A stretch of 64,000 nt of DNA from positions 28,565 through 92,564 of the forward strand of contig JAUCBJ010002263.1 in the NCBI GenBank assembly GCA_032718475.1, given 5' to 3'. The position numbers were made by a program, and so were the translations under genes. Source of the DNA: Nemertoderma westbladi (lineage: Eukaryota; Animalia; Xenacoelomorpha). How positions within the stretch are numbered: the first letter of the stretch is position 1; each line of letters opens with the position of its first letter. Shown piece by piece: positions 6,314 to 55,805 of the stretch. The notes beneath the pieces were generated by a model. The model saw only the letters and a program-made list of their open reading frames with translations, was not told the origin of the DNA and did no database searches.

Positions 6314-6485
6314 TATACGCATATATAACCCCACAATATTTATTACTATTAATGAATCAATCACAATTACAAACAATATTAACAAACAAACAATTGCACA
6401 GATACCCATCACCAAGATACAATGAAACTTTTAAAATTTATTTGTAAGGAGCCCAAAATTTTGAGAATTTTTAGTTTAAAACGCT

Positions 6486-10604: not shown

Positions 10605-11499
10605 CCCTGTGCTGGTCGATCGCTAACAGTGTCCGCAAGCCACAAACGTTCTGGGTTGTCAGCAATGTCAAACGCCGTAATGGTGGCCTCCTCAGTTTGG
10701 CGCCAGGCAGTCTGGCTGTCGGCACTATCAAAGGTGCTATACTGACCTACAGCATATACGCAGCAGATACGCATATATATGGTTACATATCGTTACGTTT
10801 CTACTAGATGAAGCACAAAATAGAGGTTAGATGTGAGGTGACTTAGAGTTTGTCGGCTTTGGCTCAACTTTGCTCTAAACCCCAACCCATTTGCCTAATG
10901 ACTTCGGGTTCGCGTGATTTCGCACTGGCTCCTAATCCAAAAAAATGTGCCGATAAAAATCGAATTCCGGGTAAACTAGCCGCGAGTCTAAAATACTCAC
11001 CTTTTAATTTCCCAAACTACATTCCCAAAAGAAAAATAATGCAGTCGAGAGTTAATTCGGTCTAAATAATAGTAGACACGACTACGTAGAACAAGGCCGG
11101 TTTTCTTTTCCAAAAAAAAGTTTATCGGTAGGCTCGCCAGCCTTCCATCCGCTCTTGTCCTCCCCAATTTTAATTTTATCTAGCTGTATTCTAGAATTCG
11201 CATTCACTGGAGAATCGTTTTTCTTAAATTTAAATCCAACTAAATGGATTTGTCTAATAAATTTTGAAAAATTGTCTCACTTGTGGGTTCCAAGTGGAAT
11301 TCCATTCCTACTGTACACACAATCCCGCTCCTATGTGATATATAAGGGTACTACCCTCCATGTTCACATATAAAGACAATGGAATTCTACCGCTGTCTCT
11401 ATCTACAGTGAAGAGGATTACAAATGCACATACAGTAATACAAATACTAAATTACTAAAATACGGTAGGTCTATGTGGCGGCCAACAAAGGTCCCACAT

Positions 11500-17400: not shown

Positions 17401-20348
17401 GAAATCAGTTGATAGACGTTGGTAAGTTTTAATAACCCTCCGGCCTCTTCACGCTGGTACTCGATGCGTTGCCATTCTCGTCGGAGTCGATGATGAAGTC
17501 GACCGATTATCCTGATGAGAACCGTCGGTGCGTTAGCATACTCGAGTTGTCCAATGGACCGTAAAGTCCCTATAGCATTCTTGATTTCGTCCGCGAGTCG
17601 TAGAAGATCGATCGGTTTCGAAATGCTGCCTCCTCTACAGAGGTCTTCGATAATGGATTTAGCCATGGCGACATTACCTCCGTAAATCGAATATAAACGG
17701 TCGTACGCTAACTCAAAGGCATCAGGAACACCAATAAAGGTTTCCGCTAATCGTTTCGGCTCACCAGACAGGACTAGGAGCAAGTAATTAAACTTCTCCG
17801 TCGAGGTGAAAGCACACTTAGCGATCTGGGACTCTACGTAGTCTACCATTGTGCGCCAGTGTTTCGCGTTGCCAGAGAACTTTGGCGGTTGCTGTGCCGG
17901 TAATCCGTGTCTAGCCGCGAATTTCGCAATCTCGCTAACCAAATCCAACTGTCCGCGTCCCTGTTCGGTGGCGTCGTCCAGTCGCTCCCTTCCGCGTGTT
18001 GTTCGTCGGTAGGAATTATTAACGGGATCTTCTTCTCGATGTGTCGGAGTCTGTCTAGTCTCCTGTTCTCGCCTTGGTAGTCAATGTTGTCTAGGTTGTT
18101 CTAACTCCATGCTGGTTCGTGATCGATCCGACGGTTGCGCTTCGAGTCGATCTTCGAGTTGAGCTAGTCGGTCCGTCATCTCGGTGAACTGTTTGGCGCT
18201 GATCGTTTCCGGTGGTTTCAACGTGGGTTTCTGCAAAGGTGTTTCTCGTGGAGGATTCTCGATGTAGGGGTTTGTCGATCGTTCCTCCCGTTTGTAATCC
18301 GCTGTCTCTGCCGCTCCAGTACGGAATATTTCCCGTTCCGTTGACTCCGAGTCACTGGATGAGTCGCTTTCGTCCGGATAAGGTGGCTGGCGGTTTCGCG
18401 TTCAGCGTATTACTTTTGGTCTCGTTCGCTGAGGTCTAGAGTCTACGGTTCTCCGTCGTTCGGTAGGCTCGCAAGCCTTCCACGAAGTCGTAGGTCTCGT
18501 TATACGTTGTTCGATCCCGTGGGTACTACCCACATCCATCCTCCTCCGTAGTTCGGTAGGCTCGCAAGCCTTCCACAAAGTCGTAGGTTGCGTCGAACAT
18601 TGTGTCAAAGGTCGAGTGAAATAGTCGGGTTTCGTAGTCGGTCTATAAATAACTGGGTTCGCACAGCACATCACAGGTTTAACTTGTAATGGTTTACTCA
18701 CCTGTTTAATTGTCATAAACGCAGGTTCCTCTCTTCCTACAAGTAGACTACGACTTACTGTAGGTGGACTAGTTATGTTACCTGCTAAAATTGGCGATGA
18801 AGTTGCCCTAGGTTGCAGTATTTCCGTCACAACAAACCTGTTGCCTTGCGTCGAACGCACAGGCGTTATTTCCATAGGTTTCGTAACAAAGACCGGTTTT
18901 ATCGAAGTCGTGGGTTTGAGCATAGGAATAACTTGGGGAAAACGTTTACAGTAATCCTCGACGAACTCCTCTCCTCGATCTATCGCTTCCACACTTCCTT
19001 CCTCGATTTGCTTCTGAATTCCGTGATATCGAGCTTCCATGCGATCCAGGGCAGACAAGTCGTGTCCAGCTCGCGATCTTATAGATCTATCTCTCGCGTC
19101 GAGTTCAAGGTCCGCTTGCGCGTTCGCTGCCTCGCGCGAACTACGATTCAGCTCGAACTGTAGTTGCATCTCCCTTTCGCATCGATCCGCTACTTGTTGT
19201 TGTGCCGCTAACTCCGCTTCCTGTATAGCTAAACGAGTGTTTATTTGTCGCGCCTCCAACTTGGCGCGAGCATCGGATGCTGCTTTCTTCCGTGCTAATT
19301 CGTCGGCTGCCGCCGCCGCGGCTGCTTCTTGCGCTAAGTCTTCCTCCAGTCTTCTCATCTCTGAGGATTCTAATTCGGCTTGCGCCTTGAGTTGCGCAAT
19401 TCTCGCCTCATCCTCTCTATATTGTTTCTCTCCCTCGATGGCGATCTGTGCCATCCTCTGTTGCGTTTCTTCCTCGACGACTTGTTGTCGGCGTGCAACC
19501 TCCTGTTGTTGTCGAGTAATTACAGACGCTGTTCTACTAACGTCGCCAACGTCGCCAACATCTCTCCGTACACTAACAAACGATCTATCCAGTGGTGGAA
19601 TTTGGTAGGCTCGCGAGCCTTCCGTAGTAAGAACTTCCGTCGTCCCTCGCGGTTCGACTTCCGGTTCTTCGATTGGTACGCCGCATCTACGAAGAAAATT
19701 GGTGAGCGTCTCTAACCTCCCGTCCAGGCAGTAGAGTTCTTCTTCCTCTTCGGGTTGTAACACCGCGTCCGAAACTGACTCACCTAGCAGTTGGTCGAAC
19801 TGCTCCTGTTGAGCCAATCTTATCACCGACTTAAACTGAATAAGGCTTTCTCTCGCACTTACCAACTTGTCTATTATCTTTACCTGAGTAAAGTTATCGC
19901 CACGCAACTCTGCAAGTTCGTGTAAACCTTTAAGTTTATCTACGGAGGCATGTACCCTACCTTCTATCCTTACCTGTAAGGTGTAGAACTCGTATCTCGA
20001 CATCGGGGCGGTTAACTTGCGTAAAACGCGAAAACCTTCTCCGAGGTTCCGGGTAATCTGGGCCATGTGTCCTCCTATACTCCTAATAACGTTCTCCTGG
20101 CTTCCAGTCGAACTTACCATGTCTGGTTCCCGTGATCTGGTCTGCGGGATGGTAAGGAAATCTTCAATTCTGCCGTCGCCAAGCGTTGCAGCTTCCGGTA
20201 TTTCCGTTCGGGGTACCGGCGACGCATGCGGTGTGACATCGGTGGAATCTCGGGTTCTCCTTCTCGGTTCGTCTACTGTCGATCTGTCCTGGTCGCACGA
20301 GTCATAGTCGGTAGGTGGGTATCGAGTCGAATGGGGTGTGTCACTCAT
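11500..20348 (-). pseudogene. BEL/Pao gag-pol polyprotein of element 1 (3 in-frame stops, frameshift in integrase near 12160)
   Basis: Coiled-coil N-terminus; Gag PKFSG..EKFNYL; CCHC knuckles; protease AILDSTSSHSY; RT FYVDD; Pao RNase H HSFSDAS; IN H..H..CMIC, GIDCFGP, YCDQGTNF, E.ILNTRP. ORF pieces 18402-20348, 16842-17948 and 12075-16805 share one frame. Confidence 0.93.
13370..13770. repeat. 12-bp coding repeat (xSPD tetrapeptide) in RNase H-integrase linker
   Basis: TCTGGTGARACG-like units; protein SPDVSPDCSPDYSPDY. Confidence 0.85.
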
Positions 20349-21772
20349 GTCTTATTATATACGTCAAGTACGGGTAATAAAATGTCAAAGTATCTGAATG
20401 TTGAAATGTTAAACTTACCTTGGTATATATAGTATATATATACCCTAACCGGTACAAATAAATCAACAAAGTCAGAATGTCGAAATGTCGAAATTTCCAA
20501 ATGTCAAACTTACCTTGATATATATATATATCTTATATATACCCTAACCGGTACAAATAAAACTAACAAAGTATATAATAAAATAAGTAATAATCTAGCC
20601 TACCGGCTAAATTTGTACGAATAAATGAGATAACGGTATACGTTACCAAAATGTAGATCAACAAGTTCAAATAATAGGCAAAACAGCAACGTCTAACGGG
20701 AAAATAAGTACCAACAACACTACTAATAGACAGTGAAACCCACAAATTTTGAGTACTACTGTGCTTTCTTAAGTTTGAACGACACGAGTCGTAAAACTTA
20801 CGCTCCTTTGATCTTCCAGTCGTGCAAATTCCCAAATACAAACCGGACGTGGGTCGTTCCGTTTTTCGGCGGCGCGGACGAATTTTTTGTCTCCCAACAT
20901 TGCGAAAAGCGGTCTAATCCTCGAAGCGGTCCAGAAATGAGTCCTTGAGTCCTGAAAAGTCGAAGGTGAGAGTTTTACTTCTACGCTACGAAAATTCTTC
21001 CTAGGTACTGATACAACTTGGTCTTTAAACCCTATGTACCTTTTCAAGTACCGAAAAGTAACACCGCACACACACGGCGTAAAACAAAGTGCTACAAACT
21101 AACTATTAGCTAGTCAAATATTAAATGCAAAAGTTCTAGCTACCCTAAAAGCCTACTGAAGCAGGGGACATTCTACAAATTACTAAATTTACTAACCTTA
21201 AATTTTTAAATATCTCCTACTTTCAATAGCTAACAGTATGTGAGAGACCTCACGGTTGGGATCAATACTATACGCTAATTTGTATAATATATACCTCACT
21301 GTTGTGTCCTCTACGGTAGGGACTACCCTACAGCCTACAAATCTACCAATACGAAGCTATAGAATATCTCTATCCATAAAGTCCAGTAGCATACCGCTTA
21401 CCAGATCCTAGTAACGATGTATCTTACTATGAGACTCTAGTAATGAAACGGGCTCGTACAGTATCTGACAACAAATCCCAGTCCAGGATATCTAAACAAA
21501 CAGATACAATACACAAACTACTACTGGCGAGGAGCAGAGCCTGGTGTCTATTCTATGTACGTGGGCGGGTCTAATGCCTACGTACTAGACAAAAGGATAC
21601 CTGTCCTCTAACCGGTATGGCAGATGTACAGTTACAGTAACAGACCAAACTCACGGGAAAACAATCCCCGCGCAGCGAATCCTAACTATCGCTGACAGTC
21701 CTAAATACAGTAACTTGCCGCGGTGTGATTTATATGGTTTATATACGAGCTAGGTGGGTTACGGCCCTAGCG

Positions 21773-21946
21773 TAACAATAACTGATCCCCCTGTCTGAAT
21801 CAGCCTAAAAGGTCGTGCCTAAATGTAACAATAACTGATCTCCCTGCACGAAATCAGTCTAAAAGGTCGTGCCTAAATGTAACAATAACTGATCCCCCTG
21901 TACGAAATCAGTCTAAAAAGTCAGGCCTAAATGTAACAATAACTGC
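21773..21946. repeat. ~56-bp tandem repeat (3-4 copies) inside element 1 LTR
   Basis: GTAACAATAACTGATC...AAAAGGTCGTGCCTAAAT recurs. Confidence 0.8.
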
Positions 21947-23124
21947 TGCGCAGAAAACAACAGTTTAATAACGAAAATGAAATGCTCCCTCTTGCCGTAA
22001 CTAAATATCTGATCCTAATTTACAAATACAGATAATTTCTGCCTAAAGTAATCTAAAGTGCGCTATAACTAGTAGAAACTCTAAGGGTAGATATGTTTTA
22101 GGGCGTGTGTGTGTGGGTGTGTTACAAATAAAACAATTTTGGTGTATCCTTTCACTAGGTTTTAGTAATTCTCTGACCGAAATAATACCGTGCGCTAGCT
22201 ACTAAAATAAACTAGTCGCGTTTTGTTGAACTTTATACTAACAAATGACGTCAAAGCTCTCTCCTTCCTATCCACAACTCAAATGGGCAACCACGGTGTT
22301 AATAACTACACCCGTGATCGGCACAAATACCAGATTCTGGTTGTAAGATAAGAAATAGGGATTAATTGCTACCGTACGTTAGCTGATCTGGTATACGAAT
22401 TTGATTCTAGAACTTTGTTGCCGCGGTAGTTAGCAGCAATACCTATCAGTACGTGGCAAGGCGCGGTAGGATATTAATAAAAACCTCCCTAGGCCAAGCG
22501 GTGTGCCGGTAGCAGAAATGCTCCTTGCCTGATCAAATAACCAACTTCAGGCAGGGGGGGGGGGGGGGTACTAATGTATGCTCTACAAAGCGAACCGGTA
22601 CCAAACGGTCAGTACTGCGAATCACTAAATTATGGAAACATATGCTGTCTGTACCTAATATGTACTCGCGTACTGACGGACGGCAATAATTCGCTTCTAC
22701 CTACTTACCTGTGAGGTATACAGGTAACCCAGGGGTTCGCAGGACTGGCAAAGGGGGAGGGGGGGGTTTTCTGCCTAAAATGTAGTTATTTGATCCTAAA
22801 TTTGCGGCGTCCCAGGACGACGTCATGCTTACCCTGATCTATAGGTCTTACGGCGGGCAAGGGCTTCAAACAAAGTCTTACCTTCCTCATAAAGCGGGCG
22901 CTGCATGGCAAGTGGAGCATTTCGAAGGGCGAAGGGGTGTGCGGTCCAAGTTAAAGTGGGCGCTAGCGTGTTGTGGACATCTTTTCCCTGCGTTGCTGAC
23001 GGCCTAACGGTCTAGGCGGTCATCTTCCCGATGTTTGGCTGTCCCAAAGTTGGACCAAAGAAAAACATGTTCAGGAGTTTACAAATATATTTACAGTTTA
23101 CGAAGTTAATTGTGATTGTACAAG

Positions 23125-23292
23125 TAGTGATAACCGAAGGCAAACCAGCCCTTTATATACTAAATCTGGGACATAGAATTCGCTAGAACCTCCTAGAATA
23201 TTCGATGGCCTCACATTGGAGCAATAAGATATTCCATGCCTTATGATTGGCCTAACTCATCCTTCGATACGTTGTACGCACCTCATTGGCTT
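23125..23292 (-). promoter_or_regulatory. Pol II promoter in element 1 LTR: CCAAT boxes, heat-shock element, TATA
   Basis: Minus-strand TATATAAA at 23152-23159; nGAAn/nTTCn array at 23175-23204; three ATTGG upstream; TCACTACTT initiator-like shared with element 2. Confidence 0.6.
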
Positions 23293-23334
23293 ACCAATTT
23301 GTACCAAATGAAAATAAATGGCCCCAAAATACAA

Positions 23335-23410
23335 ATTTCCCGACCAAGATTCGAACTCGTAACCTATGTAATGCAACCAACGCCTTAACCATCTGACCAC
23401 TACGCCACGA
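23335..23410 (-). ncRNA. tRNA-derived Pol III A/B-box unit in U3 of element 1 5' LTR
   Basis: Copy of 440-515. Confidence 0.6.
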
Positions 23411-23544
23411 GAGTAACTAGGGGTTTTATGTATACAAATATGAATAGGCATATTACATTACTGTAACTTAATCAACATGCGTCGGATTTTCGAAAGTTTT
23501 TACGTTATACTACAAATGCTATTCTATAGTGAAATAATTCATCA

Positions 23545-23624
23545 CGCGAGATTAATTATTTTCTCGCGAGTTTAATCATTTATCTCGCGAGATTAATTAT
23601 TTTCGCGCGAGTTTAATCATTTAT
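23545..23624. repeat. 80-bp remnant (4 units) of the TCTCGCGAG satellite between the two BEL elements
   Basis: Same 20/21-bp units as 40280-46106. Confidence 0.95.
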
Positions 23625-23751
23625 TATAGAATCATATTCCCTAAATGCCGTGGATTTTCAAAATTTTATTTTATTCGAATTAACTTTGTTAAAGATTACA
23701 TTAAGTCCTCATTTGTATTTGCTATATCTATTGTACGATGTTTAGTCAAGT

Positions 23752-23838
23752 GGTTCAGTAGCTCAGTCGGTAGAGCGTTGGAAATTATATATGTAGTAGG
23801 TATTGAGTTCGAATCCTTGTAGGTGCGAATTATTTTTT
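23752..23838 (+). ncRNA. tRNA-derived Pol III unit in U3 of element 2 5' LTR
   Basis: TAGCTCAGTCGGTAGAGCG (A box, perfect GCTC/GAGC D stem) at 23759; GAGTTCGAATCC (B box) at 23805; T6 terminator at 23833-23838. Confidence 0.65.
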
Positions 23839-23904
23839 GTACAGAATTTCAACTCATTTAAATTGACCGCTACAAATTAAATTGCATTTGTCTGTACCTA
23901 GATT

Positions 23905-24085
23905 AACCAATGGGACTGTAGTTATTAGATTGTAACCAATGTCGTGCAAGTTATATATTAGCTGGACCAATAGCTATCTTTAAAAACCTGTTAGAACCTA
24001 TAGAACAATCGAGAATTTTCTCGATTGATTGCAGCACAAATTTGCTATATAAAGGTGCGATTTCGTTCATTAGTTCACTACTTCT
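23905..24085 (+). promoter_or_regulatory. Pol II promoter in element 2 LTR: three CCAAT, heat-shock element, TATA, initiator
   Basis: CCAAT x3; aGAAc aATCg aGAAt tTTCt at 24002-24021; TATATAAA at 24046-24053; TCACTACTT about 30 nt later. Confidence 0.65.
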
Positions 24086-26329
24086 TTCTTACACAATATT
24101 ATTTCAGATTACATTGTTTATTGTATAATAGTTATTGTTTGATTTTGTAATAAAAGTTAGAAATACTTGTCACATCTGCCCTTTTCTATCTGTTTTATCA
24201 TGCTTCACCACGGTGAACCCAACTAAGGGACAGGATGGCTGGCTAGACTTCGGGCCGCAGCAATGAACGGGAACATCAAGGGAATGTAGACAGGAGACAA
24301 CCCGCAATATCAATCTTAGTTATTCGCCCATCGCCTGAAAGGTTAGACAGCATTCGATGCCTTGCTACCTAAGTGTAAGACCAAAGATCAAAGGTAGAGG
24401 TAGTGACACGCTGTACGCCTAAAATTACATCTAGGGACTGTACTGTCTTAATTCAGGAAAAAACCGCAGTAGACCTTCATATTCCTACGGGAGGAGAGAG
24501 GAGAGCAGGCAGAGATACTACTACGCAGATAGGACGTAGGCACACCGGTACAAGGCATACACATTGGTAGGGTGCAGCAAACTGTACGCCTAACTCTTGC
24601 TAAGTACAGGTGCGTTTGCGACTATTTGTAGTACAACGGTGTCCATTGCATTAGAACTTGTAGGCCAGGAGGGTTACTGTGTTTCACCTGAATTAGGATT
24701 GTACCGTTCAGGCGGTAGGGCAGTTTACGACTAGGCGCAAATAAATTGAGGCTATTAGGGATATACTAACATCTACCGTGTCCCCGCCGACATCCTGATA
24801 GGAAGTTACCAAGCCCACCTAGGTAACCAAAATTCTAGATAGGACGCCAGGCTAGCTATTAGTAACAGTACGCCTACTGTAGTAAACTAACACATTTCTT
24901 CTTAGTATTAGGGACCTGGTAAATTAAAATTGCCGAATTCTGGGCGTAGTATTAACCTTATGCCTGAATTTGAGTCCTGGAAATACGCAAGAGGGGAAGG
25001 AGCCTTATTATTCGTGAGTATTGGACCTACAAGTTACAAAATTAGAATATTCGTAAAATGCACACCGTACCCAGTAATTATATATATGAAGGAGCAAAAC
25101 TGATCTTGATGGTTCAGAATTAACACACGCGAGTTAGAAATTATTTACACCTCAAAATATATAAAATTAACTTTTGTCCGTACTGCACTTTGCCCGCTAG
25201 TTAGACATCTCCAAATCTCTGCACCTAGCTAGCGTCTCTTTCGCCCAACCATATAAATCACACCGCGGCAAAGTATACGAGCCCCTTAGTCCGTCAGTGA
25301 GTCAGCCTGATTTTAGGATTCGCTGCGCGGGATTTTGTTTTATCGAAGTTTGTCTGCTCGTAGACTGTTTTCTGCCTCACCGGTTATAAGGGACCAATAC
25401 TGCAATATATTCGCTTACTTGGAGTTTACTATTTTGGTGAGAAGGTCGGATTTATGATTTGATTCACAAACTTTACAGTAAGATATTGCAGGTATTGTTA
25501 ATGTCTCTTCGCATTAGTAGGAATATGTTTTACTGAACTACGGTTCGGTAGGACTAAAGTTATTTGAAAATTTTGTATTTTGAGGTAAAAATTTATATTT
25601 GATTAGCTAAGTGCTAATTTTTTGAAATAAAATTTGATTTGAACCGCGTGTAAAATATTTTGGAATTGAATACCGGTGTTTAAAAGGGTTTAAATACCAT
25701 ATTGTACCGGTACAAAAAATTTTCGTAAAAGTAAAACCTAACTCTTTTGTTTTTCAGGATTCAGAACTCATTTCTAGACTGTAACGGGAGCAAGACCGTG
25801 TTTAGCAAGTTTGGGAGATAGATAACTCAACAACTTTGGTTGGGAAAATCGCACTTCATCCGCAACGCTGGAAACGGAAAGGTTCACGTCCGGTTTGTAT
25901 CTGGGAATCTGTTTTTCTGGAGAATTATTGGAGTGGGTGAGTTCAAAAAGTTGCATAAATAAGTTAGGCATTACCGTATTAGTTAAAATTATTGTGGGTT
26001 CCACTGTCTCAAGTATTTATGCATTCTGTATGATTTCTTTGTTCATTGCTGAATTAGTCCGTATTATTGTATTTAATTTACCTTTTTGATAACGCATATC
26101 GTTATCCAATTTATTTGTTATAAAATTGGCCGCTAGGCTAATTTTATTATATACTTATTCCGTGACATTTATTTGCTGTAAAATTGGCCGTTCAGGCTAA
26201 TTTTATCCATCTGCTATAAAATCGGCCGGTAGGCTAATTTTATATGACTGTAATTAATACCGTTTAGATATAAATACGGTAAATTTGATACTTTGACACT
26301 CACATTTTACTTGACTTACAACTACCGAA

Positions 26330-29300
26330 ATGAGTGACAAACAAGACTATACGAAGAATACACCTACCGACTATGACTCATGTGACGTGGATAAGTCAGC
26401 AGCGGAAGAACTACAGGGGAAGACTCGCGAGCCTACCGAACCTACACCGTGTGCGTCACCAGTACATCCAACGGGAGTACCGGATGCCGTAGTACGAGGC
26501 GACGGCAGGACCGAGGACTTTCTAACTGTTCCGCAACCTAGATACAGGGAAACGGACATGGTAAGTTCAGTAGGAAGCCAGGAGAGTGTGGTTAGAAGCG
26601 TCGGAGGCTACATGGCGCATATTACCAGGAGTATTGGAGAAGGCCAACGCATATTAGACGAGTTGACCGCTCCGATGTCTCGGTTTGAGTTCTACACCCT
26701 CCAGGTTAGAGTACAAAGTAGAGTACATAAGTCCGTAGATAACCTTATCAGTCTACAAGATCTAGCTAGACAGAGACAGGATATGGATACTCAACTTAGA
26801 ATCCTCGAGAAGTTAACGATCGCTAGAGAGAAACTGATTCAGTTTAAGTCGACGATTAGGCAGATACAACAGGAACAAGCGGACCAGTTGTTAGGTGAGT
26901 CAGTTTCGGACGAGTTATTGCAACCCGAGGAAGAACAGGAACTGTATAGGCTGGATGGACAATTGAAACACCTGACGGATCACTTACGCATGTGCGGCGA
27001 GGATGTCGGAGATTGGGAAACCGTGCCGGAGGCTACGAGGGAAACTTCACTCGCACAAATCGAACTAGTACCAGGAATACTAAGTCAATCGTTGGTAAGT
27101 ATTCGTAGCGAAATTGGCGAGGGAAGTATGGTCACGTCAGAAGTTGCTCGACAACAGCAACAGTTCTACAGACAGCAACACGAAATGGAAGAACAAACTC
27201 AACTGCTAATAATACAAGCAGCGGTAGAGGAAGAGAAACTACGCGTTGCAAACGTTGCGAGAATCTCTCATCTGCAAGAACAAGCCGAGTTGGAAGCAGC
27301 TGAGATGGAAAAGTTGGAGCTAGAAATAGCACAGCGAACAGTGGCAGCTGAGTTAGCGCAACAAGCGGCAGCAGCTGAGTTGGAACGACAAGCAGCAGCA
27401 GCGGAGTCGGAGCGACAAGCAGCAGCAGCCGATTTAGAGCGACGAGCAGCAGCAGCCGATTTAGAGCGACGAGCAGCAGCAGCTGAGTTAGAGCGACAAG
27501 CGGCAGCGGCAGCGGCAGCGGCAGCGTCCGAGTTAGAGCGACAAAGGTTAGTTTCAGAAGCCAGAGTCGAGATGAAAAAACGGCAAATAAAGGCTCAATC
27601 AGCTATACGACAAGCGGAGTTCGAGGCGCAACAACAACAAACGGAACAACGAGAGAAGGAAGTTAAACTTCGTTTCGAACTCGAGAAGAAGGCGAGAGAA
27701 TTAGCCAACGCGAAGGAAGATCTGGATCTACAAGCCCGCGACCAATCGATGAGATCTCGAGACGGACATGATTTAGACCAGATGGAGGTAAGGCACCGCC
27801 AAATCCAGGAACGAATGAAGGAAGGTTCGATAGGAGCACCTGGACGGGAAAGACAATTGGTCAAAGACTTATGTCAAAGATTCCCTCAAGTAACTCCTAT
27901 GTTTGCACCAGTTACGACTAAGGAACCTGTTTCGATTGCGGGTAGTAGTAACATTTCTCCTATCCATGGTGCGACGGAACACAGGTTTGTTATTCCGGAC
28001 AAGTTTACACCGCCAAGAGCAACGTCATCGCCTATTCCGAAAGTCAAGGTAAGTAACCCACCGATTACAGATCGTAGTAGTTTGTTGACCGCACCTGCGC
28101 TACTGACGACAAAACAGGTGAGTCCACCTTTGACGCCAAAACCTGTCACGCACTACACGTACCCAATGACGTTTAGGCCTACAAGGCCTTTAGATTCAAA
28201 TGCTGTCATTCGACCACCGGTTCAGTTTACATCGCAATCTACGACTTCGAGGAAGACTTGTGAGCCTACCGAACAACGGAGACCAGTGGATACGCGACCG
28301 TTCAACCAGTTTACATCGCAATCTACGACTTTGAGGAAGACTTGTGAGCCTACCGAACAACGGAGAATAGTGGATACGCGACCGTTCAACCAGTTTACAT
28401 CGCAATCTACGACTTCGAGGAAGACTTGTGAGCCTACCGAACAACGGAGAATAGTGGATACGCGACCGTTCAACCAGTTTACATCGCAATCTACGACTTC
28501 GAGGAAGACTTACAAGCCTACCGAACAACGGAGACCAGTAGACGATGTTCCGAAACGGAATGTTAGGATTCGAACGACACAACGGACGCGAGCACGTCGA
28601 CCACCGTATCCAGGTGACAGTAGTACTTCAAGCGAGTCGGATTACCCGGAACGCGAGGTATTTAGAACAGGAGCGGCCGACGAATGTAAACGTGAGCGTT
28701 CAGACAATTCCTTTATCAATAATCCTCCACAAAATACACCAACACAGAAAGCGTTACAACCAACGGACGCAATTAGTACGCAACAACTCGCAGAAATAAT
28801 GCGCCCAGTTGTAGACAAGTTGGCCCAAATAGAGGAACGTTTAGAAGAAACTCAAACTGATAGTTCGTGAGGTAACGAGTTCGAACACTTTAGACACCCG
28901 AAGCAGCAAAGAAAACAACCCTCGAGAAACACTTCGTATCAAGGAAAAGCGCCAAGACGAGAGAACATCAACTCGATTGCCAACCAAGGACGCGAAACTT
29001 TGAACGTGGCCGAGGAGATAGCGAAATTCGCAGCGAGACAAGGTTTACCGGTACAACAACCACCGAAGTTTTCAGGTAACTCGAAACATTGGCACACCTT
29101 TGTGGACTACATCGAAACACAAATAGCAGCGTGCGCCTTTACATTGAGGGAGAAATTCAACTACCTGCTACAAACGCTGACGGGAGAACCGAAACGTCTA
29201 GCAGAAACCTTTGTCGGTGTACCAGATGCCTTCGAACTAGCGTATGATCGCTTAACTTCGATTTACGGAGGCACGGTGAGTATGGCTAAGTCAGTGATAG

Positions 29301-32300
29301 AAGAACTCTGTAAGGGGGGGGCTATAACAAAACCCGTTGACTTACTAAAACTAGCTGACGAGATTAAAAACGCCATTACTACACTACGCTCGATTGGACA
29401 ACTTGACTACGCGAACACTCCGACAGTTCTATTAAAAATAATAGGAAGATTACACCATCGACTTCGTCGGGAGTGGCGAAAGATAGAATATCAGCGAGAA
29501 GAGAGAGGCGGATTCTTGAAGTTGGAAGACGTCTACCTACTGATATCCAGAGAGGCAGTAGTCGAGACGCGTTCGAACTACACGGACCAACATATTGTGG
29601 CGGAAGGAATCACACTACCTTCATCGAACCGACAGAAACCCCAGACAACATCCACTAAGACGGCCACTTACGTTACGCCGACGGAAACCCGACGATCTTC
29701 AGACGGTAGTAAGGTGTCCGCGCCCATTGGCACCAAACAGATCCGACAACAACTAAGTACAGACTTTAGTGGTTGCCAATACTGCGAGCAGCTAGGCAAG
29801 CGGCACACTGGTCACAAACTAAGAGGTTGCCGGTTATTTCGCGAGTTAAACTCGGAAGAACGACGCCTGCAGATACGGCCATTAGATTCTTGTTGGCGGT
29901 GTACGCTACATGGACATGTCCGTAAGGACTGCCCAAATACGGACACCTGTCCTTCTTGTGGACGCAACCACGACGGCTTGCTACACACCGACAGTCATAC
30001 GCCGACAAAACGCTTCACAAGGGAACACCCGGAAGCTGCAGCAAGATGCAACACAGCATACAAGGGTCGAGAGTCGAAAACAACACCGACATTCGTGACA
30101 CACATTAGAGATTGTTTCTCGGAACAATCAGGATCGTCAGATGAAGAGTCGGAAGAAGACGACGTTTACTTTGATACTGGAGACGAACAACCATCGATTG
30201 CGCTCCTGACGCCTGATCAACTAAAGGGGTTTAGCATAATTCCCGTCAAGATTACTGGCACCAAAGGGAGCAAGAGGATCTACGCTATCCTGGATTCAGC
30301 CTCATCTCATAGCTCTGTGGATGAGAAAGTAGCTGATGTTGTCACGGATCTTAGACAAGGTAAGAACGTCAGTTACACCATAAGTAGTATGCATGGACAA
30401 CGTGCAATACCAGTAACACGAGTTAAGTTGAACTTAGACACTCTTCTTCCGAAATCGCAACATAGCGAAAAGGAGAGGTCTTTGTTACCCTTTAAGGATT
30501 TAACCTTTGCGGCCACAAAGGACTTTAGTAACCTACTAGGTCCTGTCCCAGAACAATCCTTGGAGGACCGTAAGTACATCAGACACCTTGGTGTACCTGA
30601 ATGTCCTGTCAATTATAGATCGGTAGCAATGCTGATCGGGACAGATCAATTCAACCTACATCAAGTGTGGGAAACCAGGCCATCGGCAGTCGTAGCGGGA
30701 AACGCATACGCCTGTAGAACGCCGATAGGGTGGTATACTCGAGCGCCTGTGCGCACACTGGATATAAGTGACGAGGAAGACGATATACAAAGTACATGTA
30801 GTTTATTAACTACAACTTCGACTCATTCCTTTTCACACGACGTAGACTATACTACACTACAGTCAAGTTCGACAAAACATGACACGACGTGTGTAGCTAG
30901 CATGATAAGTCACAAGGAGCAGCTAATCCACCAGGTGAGTTTAGAACTTGGGGAGAAGACGAGTCAGCCAGAGATTCCATCGACGACAGACGATAACGCC
31001 GGAAGGCTTGCGAGTCTACCTACACCAACAACCTCAACAATGCCCGTCGATATCGATGATGACGCGTTAAGAAATCATCAAGTGGAACAAGCTGCATTGG
31101 ACAAAGAATTAACGGAGAAGACTATCAGGTGGTTAGAACAAGATACAGCTGAACCTGGTAGCTACGAACCATGTATGTCGGAACAAGAGAAACAATCTTT
31201 GAAGATCATGGAAGATACTATCCGCCAGACGAAAGACGGACATTATGAGGTAGGGATGCTATGGCGTAACCAACATCCTAAACTCATAAATAACTATCCG
31301 CTAGCCTTAAGACGTCTACACTCAATACGACAACGTCTATTAAAGGACGAGAAAGCCCATCTGCAGTATAATACTCAGATGGAGACGTATTTGACCAAAG
31401 GATACGCTATCCGAATGACTAACCCAGAGATAGTGACTGACCAGACATACTACTTGCCACATCACTACGTGAGACACCCCGACAAACCAGACAAAGTATG
31501 TGTAGTCAATGACTGTGCGGCTCTGTTTGAGGGGATGTCCCTCAATAGCGAGTTGATGGATGGACCAAACATGAACAATTATCTTATGGGGGTGATTATG
31601 CGCTTCCGTCAGCGTCAAGTAGCCTTTACTTGTGACGTCGAAGCTATGTTTCACCAAGTGAGAGCGTTAGAGCAAGACAGAGACAATTTGAGGTTCCTCT
31701 GGTATCCGGAAGGAGACTTAAGTCTACCACCGGCGACTTACCAAATGCAAGTTCGCGTTTTCGGTGCCAGGGACAGCCCAAACTGTACGATGTATGCCCT
31801 AAAGCAAGCCGCTAGGGATCAGAAACATTTATATGACCCAGAGATAATTAAGATCGTAGAACGTGACTTTTACGTAGATGATGGTTTACAGAGTTGTGAC
31901 ACAGTAGAACGTGCTATAACAGTAGCACATCAATTACGGGACTGCTTAGCGGGCGGAGGTTTTAACCTCACCAAATTCGCCTCAAACAGTGCCGAATTGG
32001 TAAACTCATTCGGAACGACTGAGCGTGGAGGTGGTGACATTGACCTAGAGTTCGAACCACTACCGACGACCAAGGTGTTGGGGCTCTTTTGGGATCCAAA
32101 CACGGACAACTTTCGAGTGAAGGTGAGACTGGACAGTCAAGAAAACACACTGACAAAGAGATCCTGCTTGTCAAAATTGAGCCGATTGTTCGATCCATTA
32201 GGATTCATCAGTCCAATAATACTGCAAGCCAGAATTTATATGCGCAGTATTTGGAAGGATGGACTAACATGGGACGAGCCGATCTCATCAGACCAAGTGG

Positions 32301-35300
32301 ACTTATGGAAAACCTGGGAGGCAGAATTATCTTCGCTAGAGGATTATTCCATACCCAGAGTCTACTTTCCATTACAAACAACGTTTCCTGACAACTTGGA
32401 ATTACATTGTTTTTCCGACGCCAGTGACAACGGCTTTGGTGTGGCAGCGTACTTGCGCAGACAAGTAGACTCAGAAGAGTTCGATGTTTCGCTCATTACT
32501 TCTAAGGCAAAAACAATGCCTACTAAGTATATGACGACACCACGAGCTGAGCTACAAGCCGCAACCCTGTCAACCACAATCGTGAACCTTATACAGACTG
32601 AACTACAGTCAAGTTTACAGATATTTTATTGGACTGACGCGACGTTGGTTTTATTTTACATAAACAACGACACACTTGAATTCAAGACATTCGTAGCTAA
32701 CCGTCGCGCAGAAATTCTAGACCGTTCAATAAAAGAAGATTGGCGACATTGTCCCGGACCACAAAACCCAGCCGATATTGCGTCAAGAGGAATGATGCCT
32801 GAGGAATTCTGTAAACCAGAGAACAAAGAATTTTGGCAGCACGGACCACAGTTCTTGCAGGGATCAATACAACATTGGCCGCCACTATACGACAACAAGT
32901 CTAACACTATCCCTAAAGACGCGGAAATTAAAAAACCAAAGAAAGGGAAAGCAAAGAAAAGGACGGCGGCGAAACTTAAGAAAAAACCGAAGGCGAAATG
33001 GAAAGCGATAACTTCAAAGGTCAAGAACGGAAGACTTGCGAGCCTTTCTACACCAGACATATCGCCAGACGGTCAACCAGACACGTTACTAGACGGTCAA
33101 CCAGACACGTTACTAGACGGTCAACCAGACGTTTTGCCAGACATGTCACAAAATGTTCTACCAGACACTAGTGACATATTGACAAATAGTAAAGCCGCAG
33201 TTTCTCTATTGGAGCGGCCTTCTATTGACAAACAACCAGACGCGTTACTAGACGGTCAACCAGACGTTTTGCCAGACACGTCACTAGATATTTCGCCGGA
33301 TGTTCCGCGAAACATTTTACCAGACATGTCACAAAATGTTCTACCAGACACTAGTAACATATTGACAAATAGTAAAGCCGCAATTTCCCTATTGGAGCGG
33401 CCTTGTATTGACAAACTACCAAATTTGACACACTTGAGCAACAATAAGCACAGCGAAACCTCATGTATTACAGATGTGGGTAGTACCTACGCTAATGTAA
33501 ATACAGGTGTTACTTTGCGCTCAAGAGACATACCAAACTTGCAACCTATGGTGAGACCCGGGATTAATATCGGCAGAAAATAAAGTTTACCGAAACCCAC
33601 TGACCCCATAGAGTTCAAACCACCATTAACGATCGACTTACAAAGTACTGCCAATCAAGGTAAGAAACCAAAGAAGGACAAATTACTTGTAGACCCGGAC
33701 GGATCAACAGTCAACAAGGGAATACCTACCGGCGGACCCGTGGGCCCTTCTAGTAAATCAAAACCTTCAAAATTCTCCATTGACTTACCTGATGACGTCA
33801 CAAATACTTACGTCGACCGTATTGTAAACTTAACAGATTCTTGGACAAACGCGTGCCGAAAATTAGCGTGGATTGTACGTTTTGTACAATACGTTAAAGG
33901 CAAACGCGACTTTACACGTCGACTTACATTGACTGAGATTGACAGGTGTGAAAGTAAATTAATTCGCCATTACCAACTGCGATATTTCAAGCGCGAATTC
34001 ACATCTATAAGCCAAGGTCAACCAATCAAGTCGTCACCAATATTGAGTTGGAGTCCGATAATTTATAATGGCTTAATTTGTCATAAATCTCGGCTTCAAA
34101 ACATTGACTTTAACACAAACTTTAGATACCCAATAATAATACCGCAGCATCACGAACTACAACGTGCAATGATACTGGACGCACATTTACATCTGAAACA
34201 CGCTGGAAGACACCACTGTCTTTCCTACTTACGTACAAGATTTGTATTAATTAGACCCAGTAAAGCATTAAGTTCAGTGACACGTACGTGTATTATTTGT
34301 AAAAAGGTACATTCTAGAATAGGCACTCAAGAAATGAGTGAACTTCCACAAGCACGATTTCAAGCATTCAGACCACCTTTTACATAGACTGGAATTGATT
34401 GCTTTGGTCCCATACATACGAAACGTGGACGTATACTAGTAAAACGCTGGGGACTGATTTTCACATGTATGTCCAGTAGGGCAGTTCATATTGAACGTGT
34501 GATGGATCTTTCTACCAACGCGTTTATACTAGCACTGCGGCGATTTATCGCCAGACGCGGACTAGTGAAATGCTTGTACTCAGACCAAGGGACAAACTTT
34601 GTTGGTGCTCGAAATGAGATTGCTAGAGCCTTTAAGAAATTAGATCATGACCAAATCTCAAACGAACTACGTCCTTACAAGATTGTTTGGAAGTTTAATC
34701 CTCCAGATAGTCCATGGAGAGGCGGAGTCTGGGAGAGATTGATTAGATCTATAAAAACAGCCATGGCAAAAGTAATTCCAGTAAACCACATTTTGACAGA
34801 CGACCAACTGACAACACTGTTTGTTGAAATCGAGGCAATACTAAATACTAGACCAATAGTATTAGTACCCGATGACAAACAATCCCAGTTTGCTTTAACA
34901 CCAGCACACCTGCTTATGCAGGCACCGACTACTTTGACGCCGATTTCTATTCCAATAGAAGGTGATAGCTATGGTAGAAAAGCGTGGAAAATCACGCAAC
35001 TACTAGCTAACAAATTCTGGGAAATATGGTAAAACCATTATTTGCCCTCTATTTCTGCCAGAACAAACTGGTACAATAACACCCGCGCATTAAAGCCGGG
35101 AGATCACGTGCTGTTAGCAGAAGTGAATCTAAAAAGACGCTTCTGGATAACAGGTGTAATTTTAGCCACACATCCATCTATGGATGGAGTGACAAGAACT
35201 GTGACGGTACGGACAATTGACGGTCGTACAGTTGACAGACCGACTCAACGTCTCGTACTTCTTGAAGAGACTCGAAACGAGTCTGGAGACTACAAATCTC

Positions 35301-35320
35301 CAACAAATGTTAGTAAATAA
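26330..35320 (+). pseudogene. BEL/Pao gag-pol polyprotein of element 2 (~2997 codons in one frame, 4 nonsense codons)
   Basis: Stops ending at 28870, 33583, 34387 and 35032 are all in frame. Motifs AILDSASSHS, FYVDD, HCFSDAS, H..H..CIIC, GIDCFGP, YSDQGTNF, GGVWERL. Confidence 0.95.
28222..28540 (+). repeat. 84-bp coding tandem repeat (4 copies) in gag, each carrying the 20-nt hairpin motif
   Basis: QFTSQSTTSRKTCEPTEQRR.. x4; motif starts at 28251, 28335, 28419, 28503. Confidence 0.95.
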
Positions 35321-35982
35321 TTAGGAGTTTACAAATAGATTTCCACGTACCTGTACACTGTAGTAAGGACAGCGGTAGAATTCCATTGTCTTTATATGTG
35401 AACATTGAGGGTAGTACCCTTATGTGTCACATAGGAGCGGGATTTGTAGGTATAAGAAATGGAATTCTACTTGGAACTCACAATATTGAGACATTTTCGA
35501 AATTTTAGACAATCCATTTGGATTTGAAAAATTTTTAAAATTTTCTCCAGTGAATAGATTTCAGGGTACAGTCGGGTGGAACTTAAAATTAGAGAAACAA
35601 GAGAGGAAGACTTGCGAGCCTTTCTTAAGATTTTAATTAAATTTTACACGGTCTTGTTTCAATAAGTTACGTCAATAAATAGACTTCCCTATATTTATTA
35701 CTAACTCTTGACTGCTTATTTTCTGATAATAGTTTGGGATCAAAAAGTGAGTATTTTAGACTCACAGCCAGTTTAGCCTAAATTGTTTTTATTTCGGCAA
35801 AAAATTTTAGATAAGAAGCAGCGTGTCATTAAAGAAACCCTAGATCTTAGGCTATGGGTAGGAGGTTAGAGCGTTGTCGAGCCAAAAGGGCAGACGAAAA
35901 CTCTCACGTCTCCTCACAACTAACTACAAACTCTGTTGTATTCCCTCTAGTAGCAATGATTATGTAACCATTACTTCCAATA

Positions 35983-36219
35983 ATGGAGAAGGGGATACAA
36001 GGAGAGCCGAGATGGGGATATGATATCCAAGAGGAAGCAGCAGCGCCATTCGAACGATTTGGAGCTAAAGATTACACTATATTTGGAATAAAGGAATTAT
36101 CAGAAAGTACAGCGAAACTCGCAAACACTAAATATGACACGACGGTATCGTGGAGGTTACGAACGAATCACGGCAGACGCGTGCGCCTATCGGTCACCTT
36201 GGTGATGATTTCGAAGTAA
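35983..36219 (+). pseudogene. N-terminal remnant of accessory ORF-A, cut by internal deletion
   Basis: Homology to 5672-6313 ends near 36150. Confidence 0.65.
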
Positions 36220-37586
36220 CTACTACGATCACTGACGATCCTTTAGAGGAACTTCTTGAGATAGAAAGGAACCTCCCGAAGAAATCTCAGACGGAGATTC
36301 GACAACTTGAAGCAACAGATGCTATAGTTTGTATACAACCTTCAGAAACCTATCAACCCATAGATCCAGATGATTACGATTATAGTGTGGGAGGAAGCGC
36401 TCGACCGATTGGAGATCTTATATATGAACGAGTGTGGTACCCTGCCAATACGATGTGTGGTAAATGTGGCGTCGCTGGACATCATTCGACCAAGTGCAGT
36501 GGAAAGCACATTACTACGACTCAGCTAATCTGTGGATGGTGTGGAGATCAAGGGTCTCATACCTTTTATACTTGCTGGAGATTTATGGTTCAATGTACTT
36601 ATTGCAATATAAAAGGGCATCGAGCATCTGAATGCCAACTAAGAGACATACCTTATGAACACGAATCTGTAAAACTCGTGAGAAAATTATTCGATGAGTG
36701 GGAAGATTTAGCCGACGAACATGTATCGGCACAAAGAAGACGATTTCCGATGAGGGCGCATCTTGGATTTTGGGCGGTAAATCCCCAAACGATGATGTCG
36801 GAAGGATACATCTCCGCTATGCCCCAATATGACGAACTTATCGAGGTAGTCGATATTTTGCCCCACGACAGTGGATTCCGAGTAGTGCGCGAGTATCTAT
36901 TACAGATTCACCCAGACAACAAGAACACGTGGAATTTTCAGAAAGTCGTAAATAGTATCACGTATGGTGAATTTGATCGTTTCCGAACTGAAAAGCGGAA
37001 TAAAGGAGCTTGGTTAACCGTCGCATGGGCGTACCGAGCCGCGTTTTACCACAAACGTATACGAGCGAGCGTATTCGAGGAAGAGGAGATCCTAGAGGCG
37101 ACCGACATACCAGCCACTCCGGTTGCGCCGTCTGCACGTCACCCTCGGGAGGACGGACAGGGTAGGATCATAAGGGTCCAGAAAGTGAGCCAACAATTAA
37201 AGAAGTCTATTAATATAGAAGAACGCAAGGGAGTTGAGCCGACCATTCGAGTTACTCGGGATACGGTATCGCTTCCTAGAGAACCAACAGGAGGATCGGG
37301 ACATACACCAGCTGATCAAAAGGGGGCGCAAGCTGCTCTTGGGTCTGCATCGTCCGCTTCTCGCGCGTTCCCAGACGTTTTACCAACTGTAGTGACAACT
37401 GATCGGTCACGAGGAATCGGTCGAGGTTTTGGGATGCCAAATAGACGAATTTGCGAGGAAACGGTCGCACCGTCTCTCAACGTCCAAGCGAAACCAGTGA
37501 CTCGCCCCACGAGTCCCATATCGCGAGCAAAGTCACCTGTGCGCAGTTTTCGAGGACGCGGCAGGGCTCGATCTACTAAGCGATAA
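36150..37586 (+). CDS. Accessory CCHC zinc-knuckle / RG-tail protein of element 2 (exonuclease part absent)
   Basis: CGKCGVAGHHSTKC, CGWCGDQGSHTFYTC, CTYCNIKGHRASEC; RGIGRGFG, RGRGRARS. Collinear with 1371-2873. Confidence 0.75.
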   Translation: MEVTNESRQTRAPIGHLGDDFEVTTTITDDPLEELLEIERNLPKKSQTEIRQLEATDAIVCIQPSETYQPIDPDDYDYSVGGSARPIGDLIYERVWYPANTMCGKCGVAGHHSTKCSGKHITTTQLICGWCGDQGSHTFYTCWRFMVQCTYCNIKGHRASECQLRDIPYEHESVKLVRKLFDEWEDLADEHVSAQRRRFPMRAHLGFWAVNPQTMMSEGYISAMPQYDELIEVVDILPHDSGFRVVREYLLQIHPDNKNTWNFQKVVNSITYGEFDRFRTEKRNKGAWLTVAWAYRAAFYHKRIRASVFEEEEILEATDIPATPVAPSARHPREDGQGRIIRVQKVSQQLKKSINIEERKGVEPTIRVTRDTVSLPREPTGGSGHTPADQKGAQAALGSASSASRAFPDVLPTVVTTDRSRGIGRGFGMPNRRICEETVAPSLNVQAKPVTRPTSPISRAKSPVRSFRGRGRARSTKR

Positions 37587-38374
37587 AAGGGAGGGCAAGG
37601 GTGGACGGAAGACTCGTGAGCCTTTCTTGTGAATTTGTGATTTATTTGAATTATATGTTTTTATATTTTGTAAGTTTTGTATTCTGGAAGAACTTATATT
37701 TAGTAAGACTCATATTTAGTAAGATTTATATTCAGTAAGAATTTATATTTTGCAAGATTTATATTTTATATTTGTGATTATTCCGAACTTATGCAATTTT
37801 TATTGTTCCGAATATTATGCAATTTATATCTTATAAGCAGTGTTTGTATTTACAGTGAAATAGAAAGTAAGAGTAGATGGAAGACTCGTGGGCCTTTCTT
37901 AAAGTTTCATTTGTAAAGTGTTATATTTCGTATTTAGAAAGTTTTATAGTTAGAAAGTTTTGTACTTAGAAAGACTCATATTTGTAATTATTCCGAACTT
38001 ATGCAATCTACATTTAGGCACGAAAGTATTTGTAATTATTTGAATTTATGCAATATTTGAGATGCAATAGTAGATGGAAGACTCGCGAGCCTTTCTTATG
38101 ATTTTCATTTATTTGTATTTGTAATTGTTTGAATTTATGCAATATTGAGATGCAATAGATTTATATTGGTGAATTTAATTTAGATTTATATTGTACTTAC
38201 TTAGTAAAGCCTTAAATATGTAAAGTTTGAATTTGTAATTATTTTGTATCGAATCATTATGTAGAAAGGAAGTATTGTTTGAAATTTAATTTGTAAATAT
38301 GTAAGTACGCCCTAAGTATTCTATAATTTGATTGATTATTGGTGAAAACCGTATATTTTATGCACGATAATATC

Positions 38375-38391
38375 CTGTTTTCATGGAGCGG
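38375..38391 (+). other. Plus-strand primer site (PPT position) of element 2
   Basis: CTGTTTTCATGGAGCGG abuts the 3' LTR; identical in element 1. Confidence 0.7.
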
Positions 38392-40279
38392 TATAGAATT
38401 ATATTCCCTAAATGCCGTGGATTTTCAAAATTTTATTTTATTCGAATTAACTTTGTAAAGATTACATTAAGTCCTCATTTGTATTTGCTATATCTATTGT
38501 ACGATGTTTAGTCAAGTGGTTCAGTAGCTCAGTCGGTAGAGCGTTCGAAATTATATATGTAGTAGGTATTGAGTTCGAATCCTTGTAGGTGCGAATTATT
38601 TTTTGTACAGAATTTCAACTCATTTAAATTGACCGCTACAAATTAAATTGCATTTGTCTGTACCTAGATTAACCAATGGGACTGTAGTTATTAGATTGTA
38701 ACCAATGTCGTGCAAGTTATATATTAGCTGGACCAATAGCTATCTTTAAAAACCTGTTAGAACCTATAGAACAATCGAGAATTTTCTCGATTGATTGCAG
38801 CACAAATTTGCTATATAAAGGTGCGATTTCGTTCATTAGTTCACTACTTCTTTCTTACACAATATTATTTCAGATTACATTGTTTATTGTATAATAGTTA
38901 TTGTTTGATTTTGTAATAAAAGTTAGAAATACTTGTCACATCTGCCCTTTTCTATCTGTTTTATCATGCTTCACCACGGTGAACCCAACTAAGGGACAGG
39001 ATGGCTGGCTAGACTTCGGGCCGCAGCAATGAACGGGAACATCAAGGGAATGTAGACAGGAGACAACCCGCAATATCAATCTTAGTTATTCGCCCATCGC
39101 CTGAAAGGTTAGACAGCGTTCAATGCCTTGCTACCTAAGTGTAAGACCAAAGATCAAAGGTAGAGGTAGTGACACGCTGTACGCCTAAAATTACATCTAG
39201 GGACTGTACTGTCTTAATTCAGGAAAAAACCGCAGTAGACCTTCATATTCCTACGGGAGGAGAGAGGAGAGCAGGCAGAGATACTAGTACGCAGATAGGA
39301 CGTAGGCACACCGGTACAAGGCATACACATTGGTAGGGTGCAGCAAACTGTACGCCTAACTCTTGCTAAGTACAGGTGCGTTTGCGACTATTTGTAGTAC
39401 AACGGTGTCCATTGCATTAGAACTTGTAGGCCAGGAGGGTTACTGTGTTTCACCTGAATTAGGATTGTACCGTTCAGGCGGTAGGGCAGTTTACGACTAG
39501 GCGCAAATAAATTGAGGCTATTAGGGATATACTAACATCTACTGTGTCCCCGCCGACATCCTGATAGGAAGTTACCAAGCCCACCTAGGTAACCAAAATT
39601 CTAGATAGGACGCCAGGCTAGCTATTAGTAACAGTACGCCTACTGTAGTAAACTAACACATTTCTTCTTAGTATTAGGGACCTGGTAAATTAAAATTGCC
39701 GAATTCTGGGCGTAGTATTAACCTTATGCCTGAATTTGAGTCCTGGAAATACGCAAGAGGGGAAGGAGCCTTATTATTCGTGAGTATTGGACCTACAAGT
39801 TACAAAATTAGAATATTCGTAAAATGCACACCGTACCCAGTAATTATATATATGGAGCAAAACTGATCTTGACGGTTCAGAATTAACACACGCGAGTTAG
39901 AAATTATTTACACCTCAAAATATATAAAATTAACTTTTGTCCGTACTGCACTTTGCCCGCTAGTTAGACATCTCCAAATCTCTGCACCTAGCTAGCGTCT
40001 CTTTCGCCCAACCATATAAATCACACCGCGGCAAAGTATACGAGCCCCTTAGTCCGTCAGTGAGTCAGCCTGATTTTAGGATTCGCTGCGCGGGATTTTG
40101 TTTTATCGAAGTTTGTCTGCTCGTAGACTGTTTTCTGCCTCACCGGTTATAAGGGACCAATACTGCAATATATTCGCTTACTTGGAGTTTACTGTTTTGG
40201 TGAGAAGGTCGGATTTATGATTTGATTCACAAACTTTACAGTAAGATATTGCAGGTATTGTTACTGTCTCTTCGCATTA
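38392..40279 (+). repeat. 3' LTR of element 2 (1888 bp), including tRNA-like unit at 38518-38604
   Basis: Direct repeat of 23625-25516. Confidence 0.93.
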
Positions 40280-50963: not shown

Positions 50964-51011
50964 TTTCTAGAAATTGATTTACATTTGTTTGCTTCACTCT
51001 TTCAAATTATT

Positions 51012-52167: not shown

Positions 52168-52206
52168 TTTGCCGATTAACTAGCTAAAAATATTGCGACA
52201 AATCCG

Positions 52207-52710: not shown

Positions 52711-52739
52711 TTTTGCGAATATGTTTCAAATAAATTTCC

Positions 52740-54373: not shown

Positions 54374-54376
54374 TAT

Positions 54377-55078: not shown

Positions 55079-55153
55079 AGCTATTACTAACTGTTCTAGA
55101 ATTACATGGACAATGAAGGTTACAGGTTACCGTTAATCTTTTTATCCATGATA

Positions 55154-55794: not shown

Positions 55795-55805
55795 TTTTAC
55801 GAATA

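Follow-up and report, generated by a model that had tools for sequence, protein, structure and literature searches.

How does a BEL/Pao retrotransposon begin reverse transcription when no tRNA-binding site follows its 5′ LTR? This question is raised by a stretch of 64,000 nucleotides from Nemertoderma westbladi (contig JAUCBJ010002263.1), the whole of which is referred to here as the window. In the ICTV profile, BEL/Pao replication is described as poorly understood and as primed by host tRNA; the Belpaoviridae carry an 18-nt site to which host tRNA-Arg or tRNA-Gly binds, and their LTRs measure 0.2–1.2 kb and their genomes 4.2–10 kb (PMC8742986). A first-pass annotation of the window had proposed that one element primes itself with a segment of its own LTR, helped by an extended pairing around that segment and by an exonuclease of its own. 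The self-priming reading is now more strongly supported, through a second element belonging to a sister family, whereas the details of the extended pairing and of the exonuclease are weak. An element-encoded primer of one kind or another is very probable in both elements, and the main reading, i.e., that both self-prime with an internal LTR segment freed by processing and not with a host tRNA, is given a probability of about 0.6.

Two elements of a divergent BEL/Pao lineage

The window holds two BEL/Pao elements, A (minus strand) and B (plus strand), which lie head to head, 80 nt apart (23545–23624). A 20/21-bp satellite surrounds both, spanning these 80 nt and the region from 40280 to about 47000. 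Element B (23625–40279, +) is 16.7 kb long. Its 5′ LTR (23625–25516, +; 1892 nt, termini TA..TA) was delimited by alignment with the 3′ LTR (38392–40279, +), and the pair is 99.3% identical, 13 of the 1892 alignment columns differing. The target-site duplication is TTTAT or ATTTAT, within the satellite; an LTR end at CA (25513) was ruled out, since the satellite unit is restored only by TA..TA ends with TTTAT or the 6-bp variant. The gag-pol of B (26315–35320, +) encodes DUF1759, Peptidase_A17, a reverse transcriptase (RT) with YVDD, RNase H and integrase, and is broken by stops at 28868, 33581, 34385 and 35030; the coding regions of A are interrupted by stops as well. Behind pol lie a CCHC zinc-knuckle ORF (36138–37586, +; homologue in A at 1371–2990) and, at the position of the plus-strand primer, a 17-nt stretch directly before the 3′ LTR (38375–38391, +), which is identical in A and B. 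The multi-CCHC ORF is kept in the two elements at 59% and is without a match among longer database proteins. About 3 kb upstream of its homologue in A are absent from this copy of B.

Element A starts at 23544 and runs on the minus strand, with its 3′ LTR cut by the start of the window. It represents a sister family of B: the RT-RNase H regions are 73% identical, and the LTRs are mostly unalignable, blastn finding just two short U5 blocks in common. The 5′ LTR of A (21300–23544, −; 2245 nt, TG..CA) has its start defined by the LTR pair (4 differences over 649 nt, the 3′ LTR being partial) and its end by contig breaks, which are described below. Two further mobile elements were seen in the window: a GC-rich non-LTR retroelement with 30-nt tandem repeats and a weak RVT_1 match, inserted in A at about 6480–10780 (−), and a Polinton/Maverick-like region at about 49400–64000 (−), with matches to a DNA polymerase B of the protein-primed type, an A32-like ATPase and endonuclease VII, and with an inverted repeat.

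The assignment to BEL/Pao is based on Pao-type Gag and Pol domains between the LTRs, in the order PR-RT-RH-IN and with their motifs in order (PF03564 and PF05380 above cut-off, PF17921 near cut-off, and DUF5641 in A). The RT-RNase H is nearest to BEL/Pao, as PF05380 was present in all of the 120 matches listed out of 357 in the database; the highest identity among these best 120 was 42%, and the named ones came from marine invertebrates. The RT-RNase H tree was built from 40 sequences, all BEL, with no non-BEL outgroup. Like the Belpaoviridae, the two elements have a gag with DUF1759, Peptidase_A17, the PR-RT-RH-IN order and a target-site duplication of 5–6 bp. They differ from the family profile in their LTRs of 1.9–2.2 kb (TA..TA in B and TG..CA in A, against 0.2–1.2 kb with TG..CA), in the size and TA..TA ends of B, and in the lack of an 18-nt tRNA-Arg or tRNA-Gly site, TGG being absent from the first 33 nt that follow each LTR. 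Thus, A and B constitute a divergent BEL/Pao lineage without the tRNA site that is a feature of the family. A search for closer relatives with the RT gave no loci apart from one distant 1.3-kb locus, ORF searches gave no matches, and a 20-nt U5 pattern shared by the two elements had no match in metagenome and viral contigs.

Two putative primer-binding sites and their complements

In element B, the putative primer-binding site GTAGGAATATG (25517–25527, +) lies flush with the LTR and has no TGG, as had been reported before. Its exact 11-nt complement, the candidate self-primer CATATTCCTAC, was confirmed inside the LTR (24478–24488, +), with its 3′ C pairing with the first base after the 5′ LTR; a second copy is present in the 3′ LTR at 39244–39254. 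The length of the match alone means little, because the first 2.8 kb of B contain eight exact 11-nt inverted repeats. Among 5000 dinucleotide-shuffled versions of the LTR, an 11-nt match flush with the LTR boundary arose in 4, and in 8 if an offset of 0–3 nt was allowed.

One of the checks proposed earlier, covariation across families, was run within the window and compared two families only. Element A has a different site, again matched by a flush complement of its own, and at the same position. The site of A, GTGAGGTATA (21290–21299, −), follows directly on the ...ACAACA at the LTR end and likewise has no TGG; the candidate self-primer, TATACCTCAC (22711–22720, −), is 10 nt long, and the duplex amounts to 12 bp if one G-U pair is counted. 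The 3′ ends of the two candidate primers lie at similar distances from the predicted start of transcription, at +412 in B and +418 in A. Cognate duplexes were calculated at −13.7 and −15.8 kcal/mol, against −4.5 for the crossed A/B pairs. Different sites with matching complements in two families therefore point to an element-encoded primer. In LTR elements, it is the 3′ end of the primer which defines the end of the LTR; a complement that ends exactly at the LTR end, in two families, is for this reason best read as a primer.

The argument from A depends on where its LTR ends, and this was fixed on contigs of four public runs (X1–X4) from three samples, one of which may be the source of the window, for the region 21210–21390. 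Of 37 loose contig ends in this region 21 were listed, 14 of them upstream. Five of these 14, drawn from three samples, leave the window at 21299/21300, each for a different and unrelated flank, two of the breaking contigs being 2299 and 522 nt long; the remaining nine lie at 21262–21289 and at 21306, and five of those show identical letters in different runs, in the manner of subfamilies. None of the 21 ends listed resembled a retained copy of the RNA that lies upstream of the primer of A. Other contigs of the A family track the window through the site and depart 1–6 nt beyond it (at 21284, 21287 and 21289). Thus, since unrelated flanks break at 21299/21300, the LTR of A is TG..CA and 2245 nt long, and the site is flush with it. 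Against the main reading stands an A-family contig type, seen in runs X1 and X2 of a single sample, whose primer-binding site carries differing bases and whose LTR partner is unphased. As separate observations, contigs of X1–X3 suggest that the LTR end and site are tandemly duplicated in some A copies (21258–21306), and a second partial copy of the element's own site lies 31–46 nt downstream in both elements (21253 and 25548).

In A, as in B, exact inverted repeats are common (15 of 10–11 nt in the first 3.2 kb), and a flush 10-mer anywhere in the LTR arose in 26 of 5000 shuffles. A match within about 30 nt of the position seen in B arose in 20 of 20,000 if any of 20 CA ends was allowed as the LTR end; with the true LTR end, the expectation by chance is about 8e-5.

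The first-pass annotation had extended the pairing in B by the arms TACTG/CAGTA and CGGTT/AACCG. These arms are present, but a local hairpin (25528–25553, +; 11–12 bp with a UACG loop) is predicted just after the site and competes for them: the two are close in energy (−10.7 against −9.8 kcal/mol), with the hairpin favoured in the co-fold. Moreover, no clear counterpart of the extension was seen in A, and one arm base varies among copies (position 24463, in the distal arm; runs X1, X3 and X4, among 40 variant rows listed of 568). In these models, the extended pairing is probably out-competed by the hairpin. A hairpin (9 bp) is also predicted just after the site of A. In a plain duplex scan, no window paired better with the 30 nt following the LTR than the primer window, in A as in B. 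In a scan that took the hairpins into account, the exact primer window ranked 8th of 916 in B, the top six windows all overlapping that same site; in A it ranked 18th of 1093.

Predicted start of transcription and possible release of the primer

The position of the candidate primers is to be seen in relation to a predicted Pol II promoter, which in B (23907–24083, +) comprises three CCAAT boxes, TATATAAA (24046) and the initiator-like TCACTACTT, with the predicted +1 at 24077. The same U3 plan, in the same order (B-box, three CCAAT, TATATAAA, TCACTACTT), is found in A, and the spacing from TATA to start is 31 nt in both (predicted +1 of A, 23128). The earlier estimate that the segment lies ~400 nt downstream of the TATA was about right, the start of the segment being about 430 nt downstream. 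Provided that transcription begins nowhere but at the shared TATA/initiator, the 3′-OH of the primer must be made by processing; the earlier claim that a cut or trimming is needed thus follows on that condition, the start itself being predicted.

The sequence of events could be as follows. Transcription would begin at the shared TATA/initiator, and the RNA would be opened just 3′ of the segment, either by RNase H, as in Tf1, or at the AG|GT splice site that adjoins the segment in A. Any overhang would be removed up to the last paired base, perhaps by the exonuclease-like protein that A-type elements encode, and such trimming would account for the flush ends. The freed 3′-OH would then anneal to the primer-binding site, which is predicted to be exposed just before the hairpin, and RT would extend it into U5. 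Should the AATAAA at 24149 serve as the RNA end in B, R would be short and another RNA molecule would have to supply the primer, since R would be severed from the template by a cut in cis; the corresponding hexamer is absent in A.

For the opening of the RNA, the two elements do not offer the same signals. A pyrimidine-rich AG precedes the primer end by 34 nt in A (22745) and by 32 nt in B (24456). In A this acceptor is strong, AG|GTAAGT begins 2 nt past the primer, and the primer, mostly in the loop of a predicted 8-bp stem, would end 2 nt short of the end of a 36-nt exon (22745–22709). In B, no GT donor adjoins the primer. Splicing is therefore a candidate in A only, whereas a cut by RNase H fits both elements. 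A primer built across a splice junction was ruled out, as in neither element did a GT/GC..AG joint (intron of at least 40 nt) yield a flush match that came to within 1 nt of the length of the unspliced one. One DNA contig of run X4 joins 24341 to 25758 at GT..AG, removing both primer and site (weakly, with 22 nt on one side), which suggests a spliced leader that drops the two; the acceptor context of this join is conserved in A (20953). Splice donors are predicted at 24341 in B and at 22882 and 22709 in A, and acceptors at 24456 and 25757 in B and at 22745 and 20953 in A. Among Rfam families, no ribozyme or other family reached its curated score in 20300–26400.

The exonuclease invoked in the first-pass annotation did not hold up for B, since this copy lacks such an ORF. 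In A, an ORF (2991–4793, −) carries DEDDy/RNase D-like motifs in the right order (3725–3242): D-x-E, D and Y-x3-D can be lined up consecutively with those of 13 bacterial RNase D/PolA domains. The alignment is not significant, since equally high scores were reached by 33 of 2000 and by 35 of 300 shuffled sequences; the predicted structure is of low confidence (pLDDT 44), and library, protein-atlas and fold searches gave no usable match, apart from one unrelated weak NCBIfam row. Given the non-significant match in A and the missing ORF in B, the link between exonuclease and priming is hypothetical. A precedent for such an ORF is provided by the bdelloid rotifer elements Juno and Vesta, in which ORF3 encodes a DEDDy exonuclease (PMC5408684). 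A resembles them in that pol is followed by an additional ORF whose RNase D-like motifs are correctly ordered, and differs in that the match is not significant and the B copy has no such ORF; in the text consulted, the Juno/Vesta exonuclease is not linked to priming (PMC5408684). The most elaborate form of the proposal is regarded as doubtful: a BEL/Pao lineage would have exchanged the tRNA for an interior-LTR primer, which splicing or a nuclease would free at ~410 nt from the cap, an element-encoded DEDDy enzyme would trim flush, and a second RNA would deliver in trans.

The strongest rival to release from the interior of a long transcript is ordinary priming of the Tf1 type: a second, TATA-less promoter would start at the first base of the segment, so that the primer would be the 5′ 10–11 nt of that RNA, with RNase H cutting after it. 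Consistent with this, the first bases of the primer of B form an initiator-like YYANWYY. In Tf1, there is a helix between the RNA 3′ of the primer and U5, and in B the co-fold predicts a second helix of this kind, with 24493–24499 (+), which adjoins the primer duplex, pairing with U5 at 25504–25510; it was not seen in A. Alternative start sites are also known to be used by Tf2 (PMC5341516). However, YYANWYY occurs 25 times in the LTR of B and is absent at the primer of A, no TATA was seen by eye 25–35 nt upstream of the primer in either element, and the full set of CCAAT, TATA and initiator is conserved about 410 nt upstream in both. A start at the segment itself is rated unlikely.

Another rival would leave priming to a host RNA, such as a tRNA half or another small RNA; the LTR complement would then mask the site by an interaction that serves regulation or packaging. 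In Copia lineages, half-tRNA primers that lack TGG are known (PMC6317226), and partition-function folding of the whole leader (1.5–1.9 kb) gave a pairing probability of 0 for both duplexes, such long folds being unreliable. In these models, the uncut leader RNA is not predicted to pair primer and site, which counts against the main reading; in favour of that reading, the pairing in A becomes favourable only after a cut (−10.4 against −1.8). A host RNA is made less likely by the need for two different host primers in two closely related families, each primer with a flush counterpart at an equivalent position of the LTR, and this rival is considered quite improbable. ARAGORN found no tRNA in the window.

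The genomic RNA might also prime with its own 3′ end, which would be produced by cleavage or trimming at the copy of the segment in the 3′ LTR (39244–39254 in B) and would loop back. The presence of the segment in both LTRs would allow this, and trimming to the duplex alone would yield a flush end. In neither element, however, does AATAAA or ATTAAA occur shortly before the primer end: these signals lie at 24149 and 24740 in B, and the sole one in A is about 740 nt downstream of the primer end. Such a 3′-end primer appears very improbable. Finally, chance inverted repeats, common as they are in both elements, are scarcely credible as an explanation, since both complements are flush with independently defined LTR ends and equally distant from the predicted start (4/5000 in B; about 8e-5 in A).

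Comparison with known self-priming systems

The main reading, self-priming with a processed internal LTR segment, has its nearest parallel in Tf1, the primer of which is the first 11 bases of its own RNA, cut by RNase H (PMC7175516, PMC4600332, PMC5341516). As in Tf1 and Tf2 of S. pombe, Tj1 and the Tf1/sushi chromoviruses (Metaviridae), there is no tRNA site in A or B, a segment of the LTR complements the bases after the 5′ LTR, and the primer must be freed from the RNA (PMC7175516, PMC4600332). The complementary LTR segment of at least 10 nt that marks the Tf1 type, pairing right after the 5′ LTR, is 11 nt long in B and 10 nt in A (10–12 nt depending on how the pairing is counted). Unlike in the Tf1 group, the primers of A and B end at about +418 and +412 of the predicted start, in LTRs of 1.9–2.2 kb, and the elements are BEL/Pao, not Ty3/gypsy: no chromodomain was found, and Pol is of the Pao type. 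Thus, the proposed mechanism would work like Tf1 self-priming, and the elements are not members of the Tf1/sushi group.

Self-priming has further been predicted for the plant TAR (Houba/Osr-1) Copia elements and for Tcn1, in a survey which looked for complementarity of at least 10 nt to a region beginning 0–5 nt past the 5′ LTR (PMC6317226). Both A and B have complementarity of that extent at that place. TAR and Tcn1 belong to other superfamilies and other hosts, and for them, too, self-priming is a prediction.

The earlier remark that self-priming is not known to have been described for BEL/Pao agrees with the literature searched, in which no published case was found; this literature covered few subscription journals, and supplements, Repbase and GyDB may list such sites. 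It is absent from the available portions of PMC3601003, PMC6934838, PMC12440569, PMC3118150, PMC3286476, PMC5006619, PMC8220671 and PMC5443660.

If the elements do encode their primer, tRNA independence would have arisen again, outside the Tf1/sushi group, in BEL/Pao, and such an element may be freed both from the host tRNA supply and from silencing by tRNA fragments. An internal primer would require a processing step that is absent from Tf1 in that form. Were the most elaborate form of the proposal correct, it would constitute a third mode of starting reverse transcription in LTR elements, beside tRNA priming and Tf1 5′-end priming, and the exonuclease ORFs of retrotransposons would gain a function. 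The two families, with their different letters, predict exact RNA ends at 24488 in B and at 22711 in A. The C. elegans element Cer7 reportedly encodes its own tRNA primer, which would be a different device.

A tRNA-like stretch does occur in the U3 of B (23748–23838, +), with a B-box and a T6, and in A at about 23335–23420 (−); an identical 11-nt B-box lies near U3 position 180–187 in both LTRs. As a source of the primer it was ruled out, since the complement of neither site occurs there; lying ahead of the CCAAT boxes, it is possibly a Pol III promoter or an insulator. Soon after the predicted start, a short block is common to A (about 23070–23040, −) and B (24215–24235, +). In A, this block follows ACA, a T-run and TGG, an arrangement resembling a canonical BEL LTR/primer-binding site junction, and the block is possibly a relic of an older, shorter LTR.
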